Sequence record: OP557969.1
Strand: one strand, 5' to 3'
Origin: Escherichia phage ph0011
Length of the DNA: 64,000 bases
Of this stretch, positions 1-6,944 are shown piece after piece (position 1 is the stretch's first letter; each line of letters starts with the position of its first letter). The notes under the pieces are model-generated. The model was given only the letters and a program-made list of their open reading frames with translations. It was not told where the DNA came from and did no database searches. Made by a program: the position numbers and the translations under genes.

Positions 1-3278
<3,278 letters not shown>

Positions 3279-3366: not shown

Positions 3367-4425
3367 ATGAAATCTCTAGCTGAAATTCGTGCACACCTAA
3401 AAGCAGAACAAGAAAAAGCAGAAGCACAAAAGAATGGTACATTCACTGGTGAGCGTAAAGCTGATTCGTTTCTAGCTTTCTGGAACGTACCTTACAATGA
3501 ACCACTAAATCTACGTTTTCTACCAGATGCTGATGAGTCCAACCCATTCTTCTGGCGTGAACGTGACATGATTAACCTAACATTCAATGGTGTAGTCGGT
3601 ATGCACACTGATAAAGTAACCGTACAAGTACCTTGTAATGAAATGTGGGTTCCTAAATCTTGTCCGGTACTGAAAGAAGTACGTCAATGGTTCCAAAGTG
3701 CGAATGAAACAGGGAATGAAGAACTAAAAGCAATGGCAGGTCGTTACTGGAAGAAAAAAACCTATCTAATGCAATGCTTTATTGCACCAGATAGTGTTGC
3801 AGTAAAAGACGACATTGCACCAGAAAATCCAATTCGCCGTATTCTAGCTAACAAAGATATCTTTGATAAAGTTAAATCTATCCTACTAAACCCAGGTATC
3901 AAAGAATCCCCAACTCACTACGTTCAAGGTCGTGATTTTGGTATTGTTAAAACTAAGAACGGTGGTGGATATAATAGCTACGACATGTCACAATTCTCCA
4001 TGTCAGAACGTCCACTAAACGAAGAAGAACTAGCAGCAATCGAAAAATATGGTCTATTCAATCTAAATGATTTTATGCCAAAACAACCAACTCCAGAAGA
4101 GTTGAAAGCAATCGAAGAAATGTTCGAAGCATCAGTAAATGGTGAAGCATATGATCCAGCACGTTGGGCATTTGCATATCGTCCAGCGGGTGTACCAAAG
4201 CCTAACACTGGAACTACCACTGTCACTGAATCAAAACCAACTCCTGCTCCAGTACAACAAGAGTCAACACCTGCACCAGTAGCACCTACTGCTCCAGTTA
4301 CACCAGCACCACAAGCTGCTCCTGTAACCCCAGTAGCTACACCAGCAGCATCTACGACTGAAGCACCAAAAGAACAACTATCTGCATCTGCACTAGTTGC
4401 TCGTTTGAAACAACAAGGTAAGTAA
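3367..4425 (+). CDS. 32: Single-stranded DNA-binding protein (T4 gp32-like)
   Basis: RFLP motif and Cys pair (VPCNEMWVPKSCP) resembling the gp32 zinc-binding core; Pro/Ala/Thr/Val-rich repetitive C-terminal region. Confidence 0.65.
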   Translation: MKSLAEIRAHLKAEQEKAEAQKNGTFTGERKADSFLAFWNVPYNEPLNLRFLPDADESNPFFWRERDMINLTFNGVVGMHTDKVTVQVPCNEMWVPKSCPVLKEVRQWFQSANETGNEELKAMAGRYWKKKTYLMQCFIAPDSVAVKDDIAPENPIRRILANKDIFDKVKSILLNPGIKESPTHYVQGRDFGIVKTKNGGGYNSYDMSQFSMSERPLNEEELAAIEKYGLFNLNDFMPKQPTPEELKAIEEMFEASVNGEAYDPARWAFAYRPAGVPKPNTGTTTVTESKPTPAPVQQESTPAPVAPTAPVTPAPQAAPVTPVATPAASTTEAPKEQLSASALVARLKQQGK

Positions 4426-4442
4426 TAGTTTTTTGAAAAGTT

Positions 4443-4470
4443 AAGGGGCAACGGAGTTTGCCCCGTTTTA
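4443..4470 (+). terminator. Rho-independent terminator-like hairpin
   Basis: ggggcaa / ttgcccc stem with 6-nt loop, followed by gtttta ttt. Confidence 0.55.
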
Positions 4471-4495
4471 TTTCATAAAATTCAAGGAGAGAATT

Positions 4496-5614
4496 ATGAA
4501 AATGACAAGTGGTTTTGCAAACATTCTTAAAAACAGTACTGGTAGTGTTAAAAAGAATACTGGTGTTAGTGTTGGATTTCATGATCCAGATACATGGGTT
4601 AGTACTGGTAACTATGCACTAAATTACCGTATTAGTGGTTATTTTGACCGTGGTATCCCACTGGGTAAAGTAACTATGTTTGCTGGTGAATCAGGTAGTG
4701 GTAAATCTTTTATTGTATCCGGTAACATCGCACGTGAAGCTCAACAACAAGGTATTTTTGTTGTAATGATTGACACAGAGAATGCTTTGGATTCAGATTG
4801 GCTACAAGCTCTTGGTGTTGACACTTCTGAAGAAAAACTTCTTAAAGTTAATATGGGTATGATTGGTGATGTAGCCAAATTCACTTATGAATTTATTGAA
4901 GGATATCGCAAAGAGTACGAAAATACACCTAAAGATGAACGCCAAAAAGTATTGTTCATTATCGATTCGATTGGTATGCTTAATACTGAAGTATCTAATG
5001 ATCAAATGAAAGCTGGTAATCTTAAAGGTGATATGGGTCATAAACCTAAGCAGCTAAAAGCATATATTACTAACTGTGTGAATTCTATTGGTTCACTAAA
5101 TATCGGAATGGTTTGTGTGAACCATTCGTATGAATCACAGGATATGTTTAATCCAGATCCTAAAGTGTCTGGTGGTAGTGGTTTGATTTATGCATCATCA
5201 ATGGTGATTGCAATGGGTAAACTAAAACTAAAAGAAGATGAGGATGGTAATAAAACATCCGATGTGAGTGGTATTCGCTCCAAATGTAAAGTTATGAAAA
5301 CTCGTTATAATAAACCATTCGAGGAAGTTGAGATTAAGATTCCTTGGGATAAAGGTATGGACCCACGTAGTGGTCTACTAGATATGTTTGAAAAATACGG
5401 TCTAATCACTAAATCAGGTAACCGTCTATTGTATGTTGATATTGTAACTGGCGAACAGATTCTAAAATATCGCAAAGAGTGGATGCGTAATGAAGATTCA
5501 TGTCTTGATTTGGTAATGCATCAATTTAAAAATCATCCTTTGATTGAAGAAGTTAAAGAAGAAGAAAAAGGTGATGAAACTTTTGGTACTGATGTTGATA
5601 TTAGTGAGGAATAA
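4496..5614 (+). CDS. uvsX: UvsX recombinase (RecA-like)
   Basis: Walker A GESGSGKS, Walker B-like VLFIIDSIG, and C-terminal SGLLDM block matching T4 UvsX. Confidence 0.8.
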   Translation: MKMTSGFANILKNSTGSVKKNTGVSVGFHDPDTWVSTGNYALNYRISGYFDRGIPLGKVTMFAGESGSGKSFIVSGNIAREAQQQGIFVVMIDTENALDSDWLQALGVDTSEEKLLKVNMGMIGDVAKFTYEFIEGYRKEYENTPKDERQKVLFIIDSIGMLNTEVSNDQMKAGNLKGDMGHKPKQLKAYITNCVNSIGSLNIGMVCVNHSYESQDMFNPDPKVSGGSGLIYASSMVIAMGKLKLKEDEDGNKTSDVSGIRSKCKVMKTRYNKPFEEVEIKIPWDKGMDPRSGLLDMFEKYGLITKSGNRLLYVDIVTGEQILKYRKEWMRNEDSCLDLVMHQFKNHPLIEEVKEEEKGDETFGTDVDISEE

Positions 5615-6075
5615 TGAAACCTTGGCATTGGATTATCAAAGATGATAAATCTAAAATTATTGAAATGATTGAGTTCTTTAACAAAGAAATTGAAGAGGCT
5701 CGTCGTGAAGTAAAGAAGATTGGCATCATTGAAAAAATTGCTCAAGAGATTCCTGGCTGGCATGAGACGCGTCTAAGCCAGCTTCAAGAACTTGAAGCAG
5801 TATTGGAAATGTTAGAAATTGAAATGCGTCAGATACAAGCCGAGAAGTTCAAATACTTTCTCGAAGGATACCGCCGTGCACTATCTTCATCTGACTGTAA
5901 AAAGTATGTTGAAGGTGATAAAGATGTTTGTGAGTTAGCAGAACTTATAAACGAGGTATCTTATATAAGAAATACATATTCCAGTATTGTTAAATCCTTA
6001 GAGATGAAAGCTTTTCAGTTAAACAATATTGTGAGACTACGTGCCGCTGGTATCGAGGATGCACGTTTAGAATAA
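5614..6075 (+). CDS. Hypothetical coiled-coil protein (153 aa); possible recombination mediator by position only
   Basis: Start overlaps the uvsX stop (TAATG); no motif recognised. Confidence 0.5.
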   Translation: MKPWHWIIKDDKSKIIEMIEFFNKEIEEARREVKKIGIIEKIAQEIPGWHETRLSQLQELEAVLEMLEIEMRQIQAEKFKYFLEGYRRALSSSDCKKYVEGDKDVCELAELINEVSYIRNTYSSIVKSLEMKAFQLNNIVRLRAAGIEDARLE

Positions 6076-6125: not shown

Positions 6126-6944
6126 ATGACAAAATTAAATGAATTCTTATCAAATATAGCAGTTCTTGATACTGAAACCACTGGCGTTGAAAGTGATGAT
6201 GATATTATTGAATTTAGTATCTCATATCCATATACTTCACATGAAAACATTGATACTATTGATAACTATACATTGCGATATAAACCACTGAAAGATATTC
6301 CACCAGAAGCATCGGCTGTTCACTTTATCAGTACTGAGGATGTAGCTAATTGTGTTGGGTATAAAGATGATTTAGATAACATAGATGCACTTATGGGATG
6401 CCGTAAGTATTTTGTTGGTCATAATGTACAATTTGACCGTAGAATGATGGTAGATAATGAATATAAATATCGTAACTCAGTTTCACAGTACTTACTCGAT
6501 GAAGATAAATGGATTTGTACTCTTCGTTTGGCTAAGAAAATGTTTGCAGAAGATACCGAATATAAAAACTTAACTCTAAGTTATTTGTGGTATAAGTTTG
6601 GATGCCATCGAGATGTTCACAGACCTATTAATGCTCACGCGGCAAAAGATGATGTATTCATGTGTTATCAGGTTCTAATCAAATTGGTTGAAATTGCCAT
6701 CGAACGTGGTCATATTGATTCCAATGGGGATATTGGTGAACAAATAGTAGCTTTTTGTAACACCCCAATGCGTTATCAATTCATGCCATTTGGTAAACAT
6801 AAAGGTGAGCCAATGAATACAGTACCATTGAATTACATTGAATGGATGATCACTAATAGTGACATTTTAGATGCAAGTAACCCTAACTGTGATAAAGATT
6901 TAGTATATACATTTGAGTACGAATATAATACTCGAACTAATTAA
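6126..6944 (+). CDS. DnaQ-like 3'-5' exonuclease (DEDDh family) with C-terminal extension
   Basis: Exo I LDTETTG, Exo II HNVQFD, Exo III HAAKDD. Confidence 0.6.
   Translation: MTKLNEFLSNIAVLDTETTGVESDDDIIEFSISYPYTSHENIDTIDNYTLRYKPLKDIPPEASAVHFISTEDVANCVGYKDDLDNIDALMGCRKYFVGHNVQFDRRMMVDNEYKYRNSVSQYLLDEDKWICTLRLAKKMFAEDTEYKNLTLSYLWYKFGCHRDVHRPINAHAAKDDVFMCYQVLIKLVEIAIERGHIDSNGDIGEQIVAFCNTPMRYQFMPFGKHKGEPMNTVPLNYIEWMITNSDILDASNPNCDKDLVYTFEYEYNTRTN

Follow-up and report, generated by a model that had tools for sequence, protein, structure and literature searches.

In Escherichia phage ph0011 the gp32-type SSB (single-stranded-DNA-binding protein) ends in a tail of two parts, a Pro/Ala/Thr-rich spacer that evolves freely and is predicted to be disordered, and a conserved, predicted amphipathic helix at the very end. 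We consider it moderately likely that the two parts form one module, a disordered tether carrying a docking helix for partner proteins, which operates in a neutral-to-basic context in place of the acidic one of T4 gp32. The analysis covered a window of 64,000 nucleotides, the whole stretch of DNA studied (sequence record OP557969.1), together with homologues from cultured phages and environmental genomes.

The SSB gene and its gp32-type core

The phage shares about 94% nucleotide identity with Asteriusvirus jumbo phages (121Q, PBECO4 and phAPEC6 are examples), and its 352-aa SSB is 98% identical at the protein level to the SSBs of these three phages and 70% identical to that of RaK2. The features discussed below are collected in Table 1. 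The SSB gene lies within a conserved SSB-UvsX-UvsY-DnaQ-UvsW cluster; in environmental relatives, both the SSB-UvsX adjacency and the acidic tail of UvsX recur, and the products of the UvsX-like and UvsY-like genes are candidate partners of the SSB. A candidate promoter, which is a pattern match only, sits upstream of the SSB gene, and a hairpin is located between the SSB and UvsX genes; at the equivalent position, the record of phage G17 carries a 'terminator' feature. An antisense ORF at 3978-4451 (157 aa) is regarded as a by-product of low-complexity sequence. The clade to which the protein belongs is represented by at least 598 IMG/VR loci, the protein search gave about 2,600 members, and all Rak2/121Q/PA5oct-type jumbo phages fall within it.

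Table 1 Features of the SSB gene and its surroundings, in positions of the 64,000-nucleotide window
Feature	Position	Strand	Evidence
Candidate sigma-70-like promoter, AGGACA-16 nt-TATAAT with upstream TG	3251..3278	+	consensus scan, 10/12 matches
gp32-type single-stranded-DNA-binding protein gene, 352 aa	3367..4425	+	ORF list, Pfam PF08804, PHROG 1192
N-terminal helix, aa 3-22, SLAEIRAHLKAEQEKAEAQK	3373..3432	+	AF2 helix 4-22, pLDDT ~80
OB-fold core domain, aa 39-277	3481..4197	+	AF2 pLDDT 94-98, Foldseek
Disordered Pro/Ala/Thr/Val/Gln spacer, aa 278-331	4198..4359	+	AF2 pLDDT <50, no secondary structure
Imperfect tandem repeat within the spacer, 27-bp (9-aa) unit	4274..4337	+	Tandem Repeats Finder: 2.4 copies, 72% match
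Conserved C-terminal segment, aa 332-352, EAPKEQLSASALVARLKQQGK	4360..4422	+	AF2, homologue alignment, tip profile
Amphipathic helix motif SASALVARLKQQ, aa 339-350	4381-4416	+	AF2 predicted helix 340-350, pLDDT ~78
Intrinsic-terminator-like hairpin GGGGCAA…TTGCCCC, then T run	4445..4472	+	terminator scan
UvsX-like RecA recombinase, acidic C-terminal tail …EEVKEEEKGDETFGTDVDISEE	4496..5614	+	Pfam RecA, PHROG 97
UvsY-like recombination mediator	5614..6075	+	Pfam PF11056 24.5 bits, PHROG 231 E 2.4e-25

Membership in the gp32 family, which had been proposed in the initial annotation, was borne out by both profile and structure comparisons. The PF08804 match reached 29.5 bits against a cut-off of 26.8 (aa 49-243), that to PHROG 1192 was essentially full length (aa 1-350, E 2.6e-101), and hhalign aligned the protein with T4 gp32 at a probability of 95%. 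Because a direct sequence search of solved structures gave only a marginal match, to 1gpc (E 0.025), the fold was confirmed with an AF2 model and Foldseek. The modelled core retrieved the RB69 gp32 core 2a1k (E 2.3e-9, TM 0.68-0.72), T4 1gpc (E 1.9e-8, TM 0.70) and 8gme (E 1e-7), and the best unrelated match came after these gp32 cores at only E 0.06. The bacterial SSB OB fold PF00436 gave no Pfam match at E up to 0.01, the fold search pointing to gp32 cores only. Judged by its profile matches and its model, the protein is a gp32-type SSB whose core has the gp32 fold. The likeness to T4 and RB69 gp32 extends over the core fold (Foldseek E 2e-9 to 2e-8, TM ~0.7), the N-terminal helix, a disordered C-terminal region bearing a short amphipathic helix, and a gene set among replication and recombination genes, whereas sequence identity is only 15-20%. 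Within the genus, the pN/pS of the core is 0.06-0.09.

Two details of the T4 protein are altered. In the hhalign alignment, only two of the four ligands of the T4-type zinc site (His64, Cys77, Cys87, Cys90) are kept: Cys77 and Cys87 correspond to C90 and C99, both invariant in 111 homologues, and Cys90 and His64 are replaced by Leu102 and Asn74. The N-terminal helix, which hhalign pairs with that of T4 gp32 and in which I7, R8 and A9 are each conserved in at least 90% of the 111 homologues, probably corresponds, on this alignment and the predicted structure, to the cooperativity (B) domain at the gp32 N-terminus; the basic KRKST (LAST) cluster is absent from the N-terminus, which starts MKSLAEIR.

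A drifting spacer and a constrained tip

The tail begins at codon 278 of the SSB reading frame and runs in frame to the stop codon (4198-4425, ORF 3367-4425, plus strand), giving aa 278-352 with the translation KPNTGTTTVTESKPTPAPVQQESTPAPVAPTAPVTPAPQAAPVTPVATPAASTTEAPKEQLSASALVARLKQQGK*. Pro, Ala and Thr make up 55% of it (19%, 19% and 17%), compared with 7%, 9% and 4% in aa 1-277. The net charge is +2 over the 75-aa tail and +3 over the last 10 residues (LVARLKQQGK), so that the description of the tail as Pro/Ala/Thr-rich and non-acidic was upheld; both strings quoted for it are present in the translation. With a tail of +2, the window SSB lacks the acidic C-terminal (A) domain of gp32. T4 gp32 (record MZ375356) has a net charge of -10 over its last 80 residues and -6 over its last 15, which agrees with the contrast drawn earlier between the basic ending here and the acidic one of T4, and nine classical gp32 proteins range from -5 to -13 and from -2 to -7 over the same lengths. 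The basic end sets the window SSB apart from all nine.

In the AF2 model, aa 283-338 have pLDDT values below 50 and secondary structure is absent. The spacer is 36-97 aa long in homologues; within the genus its pN/pS is 0.53-0.67, with 5-8 gapped codons, and of the 20 columns that vary among the six closest proteins it holds 19. In distant members its composition shifts, to EPEPEP-type in SCTP-2 and to a K/P/A/E-rich linker in XacN1. The tail had been called repetitive, which applies weakly, to one imperfect 9-aa unit in the spacer (Table 1), but the suggestion that repeat length might vary between isolates proved correct: in SP27-type proteins (P0005, 341 aa) exactly 9 aa are missing from the repeat region, and PBECO4/phAPEC6-type proteins (350 aa) differ from the window SSB by a 2-aa indel. 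As a spacer, the Pro/Ala/Thr stretch evolves freely. Ala/Pro-rich inter-domain linkers, of which the lipoyl-domain linkers of pyruvate dehydrogenase E2 are an example, offer a likeness in their content of Ala, Pro, Thr, Val and Gln with about 12% charged residues, which fits an extended flexible tether; the proteins are unrelated and composition is the sole similarity.

Treating the whole tail as one low-complexity unit describes the spacer, but not the end of the protein. There the disorder predicted for the spacer gives way to a predicted helix, which a second AF2 run placed likewise at the terminus of a RaK2-like homologue (349-360, pLDDT ~75). The helix carries the motif S-x-x-(D/A)-L-(L/V)-A-(K/R)-L-(K/R), hereafter the tip. 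Mean pairwise identity is 0.25 in the linker, 0.43 in the tip and 0.63 in the core; the pN/pS of the tip is 0-0.11 within the genus, and the comparison with phage A4 gave five synonymous and no nonsynonymous differences. Among the best 120 homologues, every complete protein carries the motif (profile scores 10-29 bits, median 24), the truncated P0058 being the sole one without an aligned copy, and so do 76 of 76 complete environmental genes (15-27 bits). The motif is found in PA5oct, Atu_ph07, SCTP-2, XacN1, CM1, RaK2, CBB and Phosso, also in those whose linker has an entirely different composition, and the distant jumbo phages PA5oct, Atu_ph07 and XacN1 have it at only 22-41% protein identity. 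The functionally constrained element of the tail is an amphipathic helix of 12-14 aa at the very end. A constraint acting on the nucleotide sequence, through the nearby terminator or the start signals of UvsX, was rejected, because synonymous changes accumulate in the tip (pS 0.13-0.39) without nonsynonymous ones and the motif persists at 22-40% protein identity.

The motif is particular to this protein within the sequences searched. The tip profile scored 23.8 bits for the SSB and at most 6.0 for the C-termini of the other window ORFs of at least 100 aa, and nothing exceeded 11.9 bits elsewhere in all window ORFs and a 25-kb replication region of phAPEC6, so that a motif common to replisome proteins is not supported. 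The same set, the other window ORFs and the phAPEC6 region, held no obvious receptor for the tip. Internal second copies occur in RaK2, Phosso and some environmental clades (8-20 bits); for that of the RaK2-like protein, AF2 predicts no helix (pLDDT ~39).

Among Rak2-like and Asteriusvirus SSBs (phAPEC6 Gp204, 121Q gp6, RaK2 ORF113, CBB_277, PA5oct gp277), all of the same family, every one has the spacer and the tip; no difference in function separates them from the window allele, which is its own linker variant (352 aa versus 350 or 341). Their records are annotated only as SSB, structural protein or hypothetical, and no description of their tail was found in the literature searched. The initial annotation had named a known interaction motif in a tail shared by related phages as the observation that would speak against it. 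Tail and motif are indeed common to the relatives, but literature searches on the T4 tip sequence, jumbo-phage gp32 tails and Rak2-like SSBs found no description of the motif.

Possible binding partners of the tip

The pattern of conservation within the motif bears on what the tip may contact. Its hydrophobic positions are invariant, position 5 being L/I, position 6 L/V/M/I and position 9 L/I, each in 100% of sequences within class, while K or R occupies the basic positions in only 52-61% of weighted sequences and the net charge of the tip varies from -1 to +3. Invariant hydrophobic and variable basic positions are what a face for docking on proteins would show, rather than a segment that binds DNA electrostatically. 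It is quite improbable that the tip works through positive charge, either by binding nucleic acid and adding DNA affinity or by pairing with an acidic tail such as the UvsX C-terminus. Such a role would suit the net charge of +1 to +3 over the last 14 aa in 111 of 118 homologues, as well as the UvsX of phAPEC6, near-identical to that of the window, whose gene lies immediately downstream of the SSB gene and whose last 20 aa carry a net charge of -7; in nearly all complete environmental relatives the last 25 aa of UvsX are at -1 to -12. The basic positions, however, are the least conserved of the motif; in some clades the tip is neutral or negative (…EELMRNLGLSA, …GLLNQLLKK) with the hydrophobic pattern kept. 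Acidic C-tails are common in RecA-family proteins whatever the SSB type, and co-variation between tip charge and UvsX tail is uninformative because both are near-constant across 80 environmental loci.

The docking surface could also lie on the SSB itself. The tip may mimic the protein's own N-terminal cooperativity helix and dock on its own or a neighbouring core at the N-helix site, tuning or capping cooperative filaments or bridging filaments rather than recruiting other proteins, a reading that we consider rather unlikely. When a profile built from the C-terminal tips only was run over 119 homologues, its best site outside the tip was the N-terminal helix ([ST]LAEIRAxLKAx), with the register unchanged in 84 of them and with another N-terminal register in 16 more. 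This site ranked first of about 300 windows in 14 of 14 representatives (shuffle p 0.002-0.01 in most clades), scored highest outside the tip in the eight distant cultured jumbo phages without exception, and was also the profile's best site in the gp32 proteins of T4, CC31, Acj61 and Campylobacter phage F365. In T4 gp32, core helix 141-152 receives the N-terminal helix (PMC11551737), and the equivalent of that core helix here, at 162-173 (NKDIFDKVKSIL), is conserved. The window protein itself, however, shows the resemblance only marginally (6.8 bits; shuffle p 0.07 for the whole body, 0.02 within N-terminal composition), and in the CBB-like clade significance is not reached (p ~0.3). The features in common, an S-x-x-E capping box, i/i+4 hydrophobics and a basic C-terminal end, are generic for isolated helices, and in five classical gp32 proteins the profile selects a core helix that is unrelated, S-[FY]-[ED]-[ED]-L-x-x-[KR]-[LF]. 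The N-terminal helix has Arg at position 6, where the tip has Leu or Val; it hardly varies, whereas the tip differs by clade, with no co-variation visible between them.

A wider scheme, which we think unlikely, would join self-docking to inheritance. An LxxLL-like docking helix, ancestral to the whole gp32 superfamily and so far overlooked even in T4 (…LDDLLNDL), would have been recast in the jumbo clade as a basic near-copy of the N-terminal cooperativity helix, so that either end could bind at one and the same site of a neighbouring SSB core; competition between the two helices would then be a switch for filament cooperativity, handing ssDNA to UvsX and UvsY without the acidic self-inhibition of T4.

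Finally, the tail might be a signal that targets the SSB to the virion or to a replication site within the cell, which we consider highly improbable. The phAPEC6 Gp204, 98% identical to the window SSB, was detected in purified virions by mass spectrometry with four peptides and 17% coverage, alongside the UvsX-like gp203 and gp205 (PMC7247149), the RaK2 SSB was likewise seen in a virion proteome (PMC5259590), and the PA5oct homologue is annotated 'structural protein, ESI-MS/MS'. Low-coverage finds of abundant DNA-binding proteins in virion preparations are, however, common carry-over, the authors of the CBB study expressly left the SSB off their structural-protein list, and nothing in these detections ties them to the tail.

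A proposed docking helix in a changed charge context

The preferred reading, docking on partner proteins, draws on the comparison with T4-type gp32. After its disordered segment, the window SSB ends in a short amphipathic Leu-rich peptide (…SALVARLKQQGK), and all classical gp32 proteins compared finish in one too (T4 LDDLLNDL, CC31 LDELLNGL, Acj61 LDDLLDEI, VAC13 LDKLLDM, K567 LDALLADL), a criterion that comes from our own reading of the sequences and not from a published family definition; the pattern is looser or weaker in the gp32 of cyanophages, Campylobacter phages and Ackermannviridae. A D-L-L-x-x-L core is common to the tip and the extreme C-terminus of T4-type proteins (…LDDLLNDL), which suggests that the tip is probably an inherited gp32 feature, although six residues of a simple pattern could be convergence. 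The segments before it differ. T4 and RB69 gp32 have a Ser/Asp/Ala-rich segment where the window SSB has its Pro/Ala/Thr spacer, and the Dda-binding helix ADKVADDLDAF of T4 gp32 is without counterpart here; in T4, an amphipathic helix made up of residues 250-264 binds the Dda helicase via V258, L262 and F265 (PMC11551737).

The initial annotation had proposed that contact with the replisome may differ from that of T4, and this is likely to be true of the partners rather than of the contact. Rak2-like phages are reported to lack gp59, gp45 and gp62 (PMC5259590), so that the partner set probably differs. The contact mode, as far as sequence comparison goes, is probably conserved, because T4-type gp32 also ends in an amphipathic Leu-rich peptide after disorder, with D-L-L-x-x-L in common. 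The change relative to T4-type gp32 is the charge context of the tip.

We infer from these comparisons that the spacer, nearly uncharged and drifting freely in sequence and length, would serve as a flexible tether only, and that the Leu/Val face of the tip helix would dock into a hydrophobic groove on partner proteins, which would thereby be recruited to SSB-coated ssDNA. Candidate partners encoded nearby are UvsX, UvsY, the DnaQ-type exonuclease, UvsW and a gp41-type helicase. The logic of a tether with a docking peptide would be that of the T4 gp32 C-terminal domain and of the bacterial SSB linker and acidic tip. Bacterial SSB of the E. coli type combines an OB fold with a low-complexity, fast-evolving disordered linker of about 55-60 aa and a conserved C-terminal docking peptide of about 10 aa, the acidic MDFDDDIPF. 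Its OB-fold family is unrelated and forms tetramers, in contrast to the monomer or filament of the gp32 type, and its acidic tip ends in Pro-Phe, whereas the window SSB has a basic amphipathic helix; a DDDIPF-type acidic tip with a hydrophobic end is absent from its C-terminus, LVARLKQQGK (net +3).

In E. coli SSB, T4 gp32 and T7 gp2.5, the acidic C-terminal end both recruits partners and regulates the protein's own DNA binding. In the Rak2/121Q/PA5oct-type clade, the surroundings of the tip would have passed from strongly acidic to neutral or basic, and since the tail is without negative charge, the self-inhibition by DNA mimicry that is attributed to the acidic tail of T4 gp32 would be absent or work differently here.

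The clade keeps the layout of tether and peptide without the negative charge, which makes it a natural experiment for telling tail functions that depend on charge from those that depend on the hydrophobic helix. The defined 12-aa peptide could be used as bait for replisome and recombination partners in jumbo phages that lack gp59, gp45 and gp62, and the D-L-L-x-x-L ending draws attention to the final residues of T4 gp32, where a specific docking site may lie.

The SSB gene, its core and its surroundings

At the family level, the annotated SSB gene is unremarkable. Its product exceeds the threshold of the Pfam gp32 family (29.5 versus 26.8 bits) and is matched end to end by PHROG 1192 ('single strand DNA binding protein', E 2.6e-101). 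Direct sequence comparison with solved structures gave a marginal match (1gpc, E 0.025), and profile comparison with T4 gp32 gave 95% probability, in an alignment that begins at the N-terminal helix and extends across the core. In an AlphaFold2 (AF2) model built from 111 homologues, the core (aa ~40-275) reached pLDDT 94-98, and the only significant Foldseek matches of the model were gp32 cores (RB69 2a1k, E 2e-9, TM 0.68-0.72; T4 1gpc, E 2e-8; also 8gme). Asteriusvirus jumbo phages (PBECO4, 121Q, phAPEC6, G17 and others) share ~94% DNA identity with the window, and their SSBs are 98% identical at the protein level. In phAPEC6, UvsW and a gp41-type helicase come next in the same cluster, and a gp43-type polymerase, an RNase H-like protein and the terminase lie ahead of it. 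Most environmental relatives (loci L010-L089) retain the order SSB, UvsX, UvsY; in several of them (for example L014, L040, L056, L065 and L074) the SSB and UvsX genes are separated by an additional 1-4 kb.

Features of the SSB region in the window
Feature	Position	Strand	Remarks
Homologue of phAPEC6 gp205	1887-3191		ORF upstream of SSB gene
Promoter-like site	3251-3278		flanks SSB gene
SSB gene	3367-4425	+	ORF, 352 aa
gp32 zinc site region	3586-3672		SSB aa 74-102
Basic cluster	3745-3765		YWKKKTY, SSB aa 127-133
Antisense ORF	3978-4451	-	157 aa; crosses tail-coding region
Tail peptide	4198-4425	+	KPNTGTTTVTESKPTPAPVQQESTPAPVAPTAPVTPAPQAAPVTPVATPAASTTEAPKEQLSASALVARLKQQGK; in frame, aa 278-352 plus stop codon
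Weak tandem repeat	4274-4337		period 27 bp, 2.4 copies, 72% matches
Terminator-like hairpin	4445-4464		followed by T run; flanks SSB gene
UvsX-like recombinase	4496-5614		downstream of SSB gene
Acidic end of UvsX-like recombinase	5540-5614		…EEVKEEEKGDETFGTDVDISEE
UvsY-like mediator	5614-6075		downstream of SSB gene
DnaQ-type exonuclease	6126-6944		downstream of SSB gene

The antisense ORF has a high content of Gly, Ala, Val and Thr; its most probable origin is the low-complexity sequence of the coding strand.

Within the core, the invariant residues C90 and C99 correspond to the T4 zinc ligands Cys77 and Cys87, and the SCPV motif is retained, with Leu102 at the place of T4 Cys90 and Asn74 at that of T4 His64. 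Judged from these residues, the zinc site looks degenerate. Since C90 and C99 are the only two of these cysteines kept across the whole jumbo-phage clade, its SSBs may be zinc-free or disulfide-using. A conserved basic cluster, W-K-K-K-[ST], follows the conserved Tyr-Trp. In T4 gp32, the internal 'LAST' sequence, KRKTS, lies before the corresponding Tyr-Trp; the window SSB lacks the T4 N-terminal LAST motif (KRKST).

Mass spectrometry of phAPEC6 virions (locus L090) detected the SSB Gp204, 98% identical to that of the window, along with the upstream protein gp205 and the neighbouring UvsX-like gp203. The SSB homologues of PA5oct (locus L091) and 121Q are annotated as 'structural protein', and the RaK2 SSB was likewise found in a virion proteome. 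Replication proteins in virions may be either truly packaged or carry-over; a virion-targeting signal is a very unlikely alternative reading of the SSB tail.

Opposite evolution of linker and tip

The initial annotation had described the SSB tail as Pro/Ala/Thr-rich and repetitive, with a basic instead of an acidic end. Composition and charge agree: the tail contains 19% Pro, 19% Ala and 17% Thr, against 7%, 9% and 4% in the remainder of the protein, and its net charge is +2, or +3 over the last ten residues. The term 'repetitive' is mildly overstated, as it corresponds to a single weak DNA tandem repeat.

Protein search found ~2,600 family members at E up to 0.001, and in the best 120 of these (43-99% identity) the segment past the conserved 'YRPAGV' was unalignable, while the final ~14 residues aligned gap-free. 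Mean pairwise identity was 0.63 for the core, 0.25 for the linker and 0.43 for the tip. Against phages A4, Turkey3 and Turkey5, pN/pS was 0.06-0.09 in the core, 0.53-0.67 with 5-8 gapped codons in the linker, and 0-0.11 in the tip, which differs from that of A4 by five synonymous and no nonsynonymous changes. Of the 20 columns that vary between the six closest proteins, 19 lie within aa 281-331 and none within aa 332-352; the proteins differ in length through a 2-aa indel and, in the repeat region, a 9-aa deletion. The linkers of the homologues are 36-97 aa long (median 58), with 22% A, 15% P, 15% T, 11% V and 11% Q when pooled, 12% charged residues and a mean net charge of -1.4. In the AF2 model, aa 283-338 have pLDDT below 50 and lack secondary structure, and aa 340-350 form a helix (pLDDT ~78); a RaK2-like homologue shows the same pattern (terminal helix 349-360, pLDDT ~75).

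By weighted frequency, the 12 positions of the tip read S 0.64; A, T or P; variable; D 0.57, A 0.17, E 0.13; L 0.84, I 0.16; L 0.64, V 0.21, M 0.12; A 0.69; R or K 0.53; L 0.79, I 0.21; K or R 0.61; A or N; and R, K or Q. The window version is S339-A-S-A-L-V-A-R-L-K-Q-Q350. Positions 5, 6 and 9 always stay within the hydrophobic class, whereas the basic positions leave theirs; the net charge of the last 14 residues ranges from -1 to +3 (mode +2). The tip profile scores 23.8 bits on the window SSB and at most 6.0 on the C-terminus of other window ORFs of at least 100 aa.

A contig scan placed at least 598 loci of the family in viral contigs. Of these, 80 environmental loci with 41-49% identity were kept for comparison, and the motif ends all 76 complete genes among them (15-27 bits; typically …AEDILAMIRARQ..). 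It also closes the proteins of PA5oct (NAQDIIALIRARQNSGN), Atu_ph07 (DVSDLIAQLKARQSAK), SCTP-2 (DTDDIVAQLKNRINK), XacN1 (EEEDIFEKLRARRNGAKK) and CM1 (SGLLAELRRKREERAVARR), and is borne by RaK2, CBB and Phosso. The SSB tail carries a conserved basic amphipathic tip clade-wide. Two linkers are not at all Pro/Ala/Thr-rich, that of SCTP-2 being EPEPEP-type and that of XacN1 K/P/A/E-rich; what marks the clade as a whole is therefore the tip rather than the composition of the linker, which was noticed initially. Functionless drift as an account of the tip is ruled out by its conservation.

Some clades have a second, internal copy of the motif inside the linker, as in RaK2 (locus L096, aa 313-324, AASDLLNRLKTN, 18.5 bits), Phosso (locus L098, aa 286-297, GASDILSRLSAK) and proteins P0022, P0024, P0025 and P0070-P0105; SAMAALAALQ-type sequences are further examples of such copies. 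For the RaK2-type copy, AF2 predicts no helix (pLDDT ~39).

Comparison with classical gp32 proteins

Nine classical gp32 genes (loci L001-L009) were retrieved for comparison. All nine proteins end acidic, their final 15 residues having a net charge of -2 to -7, and each is closed by a short amphipathic hydrophobic peptide: …DDTDLDDLLNDL in T4, …DEDLDELLNGL in CC31, …DSLDDLLDEI in Acj61, …DDDLDKLLDM in VAC13, …DDELDALLADLELDG in Vibrio K567, …[LM]SYF[AE]KLA.. in two marine phages, …DDDWLNNL in Campylobacter F365 and …SIEDFEAFLKQN in Dickeya Coodle. In the jumbo-phage motif, D-L-(L/V)-A-(K/R)-L at positions 4-9 aligns with D-L-L-N-D-L of T4; the last Leu ends the T4-type proteins, whereas the jumbo-phage proteins carry a short basic extension past it. 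With its charge inverted, the tip appears to correspond to the C-terminal end of T4 gp32.

A helix at the C-terminal end of the classical core, S-[FY]-[ED]-[ED]-L-x-x-[KR]-[LF]-x-x-V (T4 aa 227-238, SFEELNTKFGQV; Coodle, SYEDLEKRLRKV), is conserved in classical gp32 proteins, and its pattern resembles the tip motif. It falls within gp32 residues 198-253, which Karpel's group reportedly implicated in binding the neighbour's N-domain.

Possible roles of the tip

The best non-tip site of the tip profile is the N-terminal helix of the SSB itself ([ST]LAEIRAxLKAx). On the main rival reading, the tip would be a copy of this helix, able to compete for a neighbour's core site. Among 119 homologues, the helix was picked in the same register in 84 and in another N-terminal register in 16; in 12 an internal linker copy took its place, and in 7 a core site did. 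Shuffling gave p 0.002-0.01 in many clades, but the window SSB itself reached no better than p 0.07 over the whole body and 0.02 within the N-terminal composition, and the CBB-like clade ~0.3. The N-terminal helices of T4, CC31, Acj61 and Campylobacter phage F365 gp32 are likewise picked. The docking site of this helix in T4 is core helix 141-152 of the adjacent protein (PMC11551737); the counterpart in the window SSB, aa 162-173, is conserved, so that a C-terminal look-alike could compete there. However, the features shared by tip and N-terminal helix, namely a capping box, hydrophobic residues spaced i/i+4 and basic residues at the C-terminal side, are common to isolated helices in general, and an unrelated core helix is also picked in five classical gp32 proteins, for which reasons we regard this reading as unlikely.

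Another rival reading, also unlikely, is that the tip binds by charge, with DNA or the acidic tail of UvsX as its target. The adjacent UvsX-like recombinase ends strongly acidic, opposite in charge to the tip; with few exceptions, the complete environmental relatives have an acidic UvsX end as well, the net charge of the final 25 residues being -1 to -12.

Our results point to the tail being, most likely, a tethered docking peptide, because a long, flexible, nearly uncharged and almost unconstrained spacer is followed by a short, strongly constrained terminal helix whose hydrophobic face is conserved while its charged positions vary, and because T4 and bacterial SSB provide precedents. In T4 gp32, residues 250-264 are a proven amphipathic docking helix for Dda helicase via V258, L262 and F265, residues 271-301 are disordered in the Dda complex, and the isolated peptide 271-301 has a significantly lower affinity for Dda than peptide 248-270 (PMC11551737). 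No mention of the T4 terminal LDDLL peptide or of the jumbo-phage tip was found in the literature searched. The T4 tail has been proposed to mimic DNA in the binding cleft (PMC11551737), which the window tail should be unable to do, as it carries no negative charge.

As a docking peptide, the tip would bring partner proteins to SSB-coated ssDNA, and the obvious candidates would be the proteins encoded next to the SSB gene. Since gp59, gp45 and gp62 are reported absent from Rak2-like phages (PMC5259590), several classical gp32 partners are missing there, which makes a different tip chemistry plausible in these phages.
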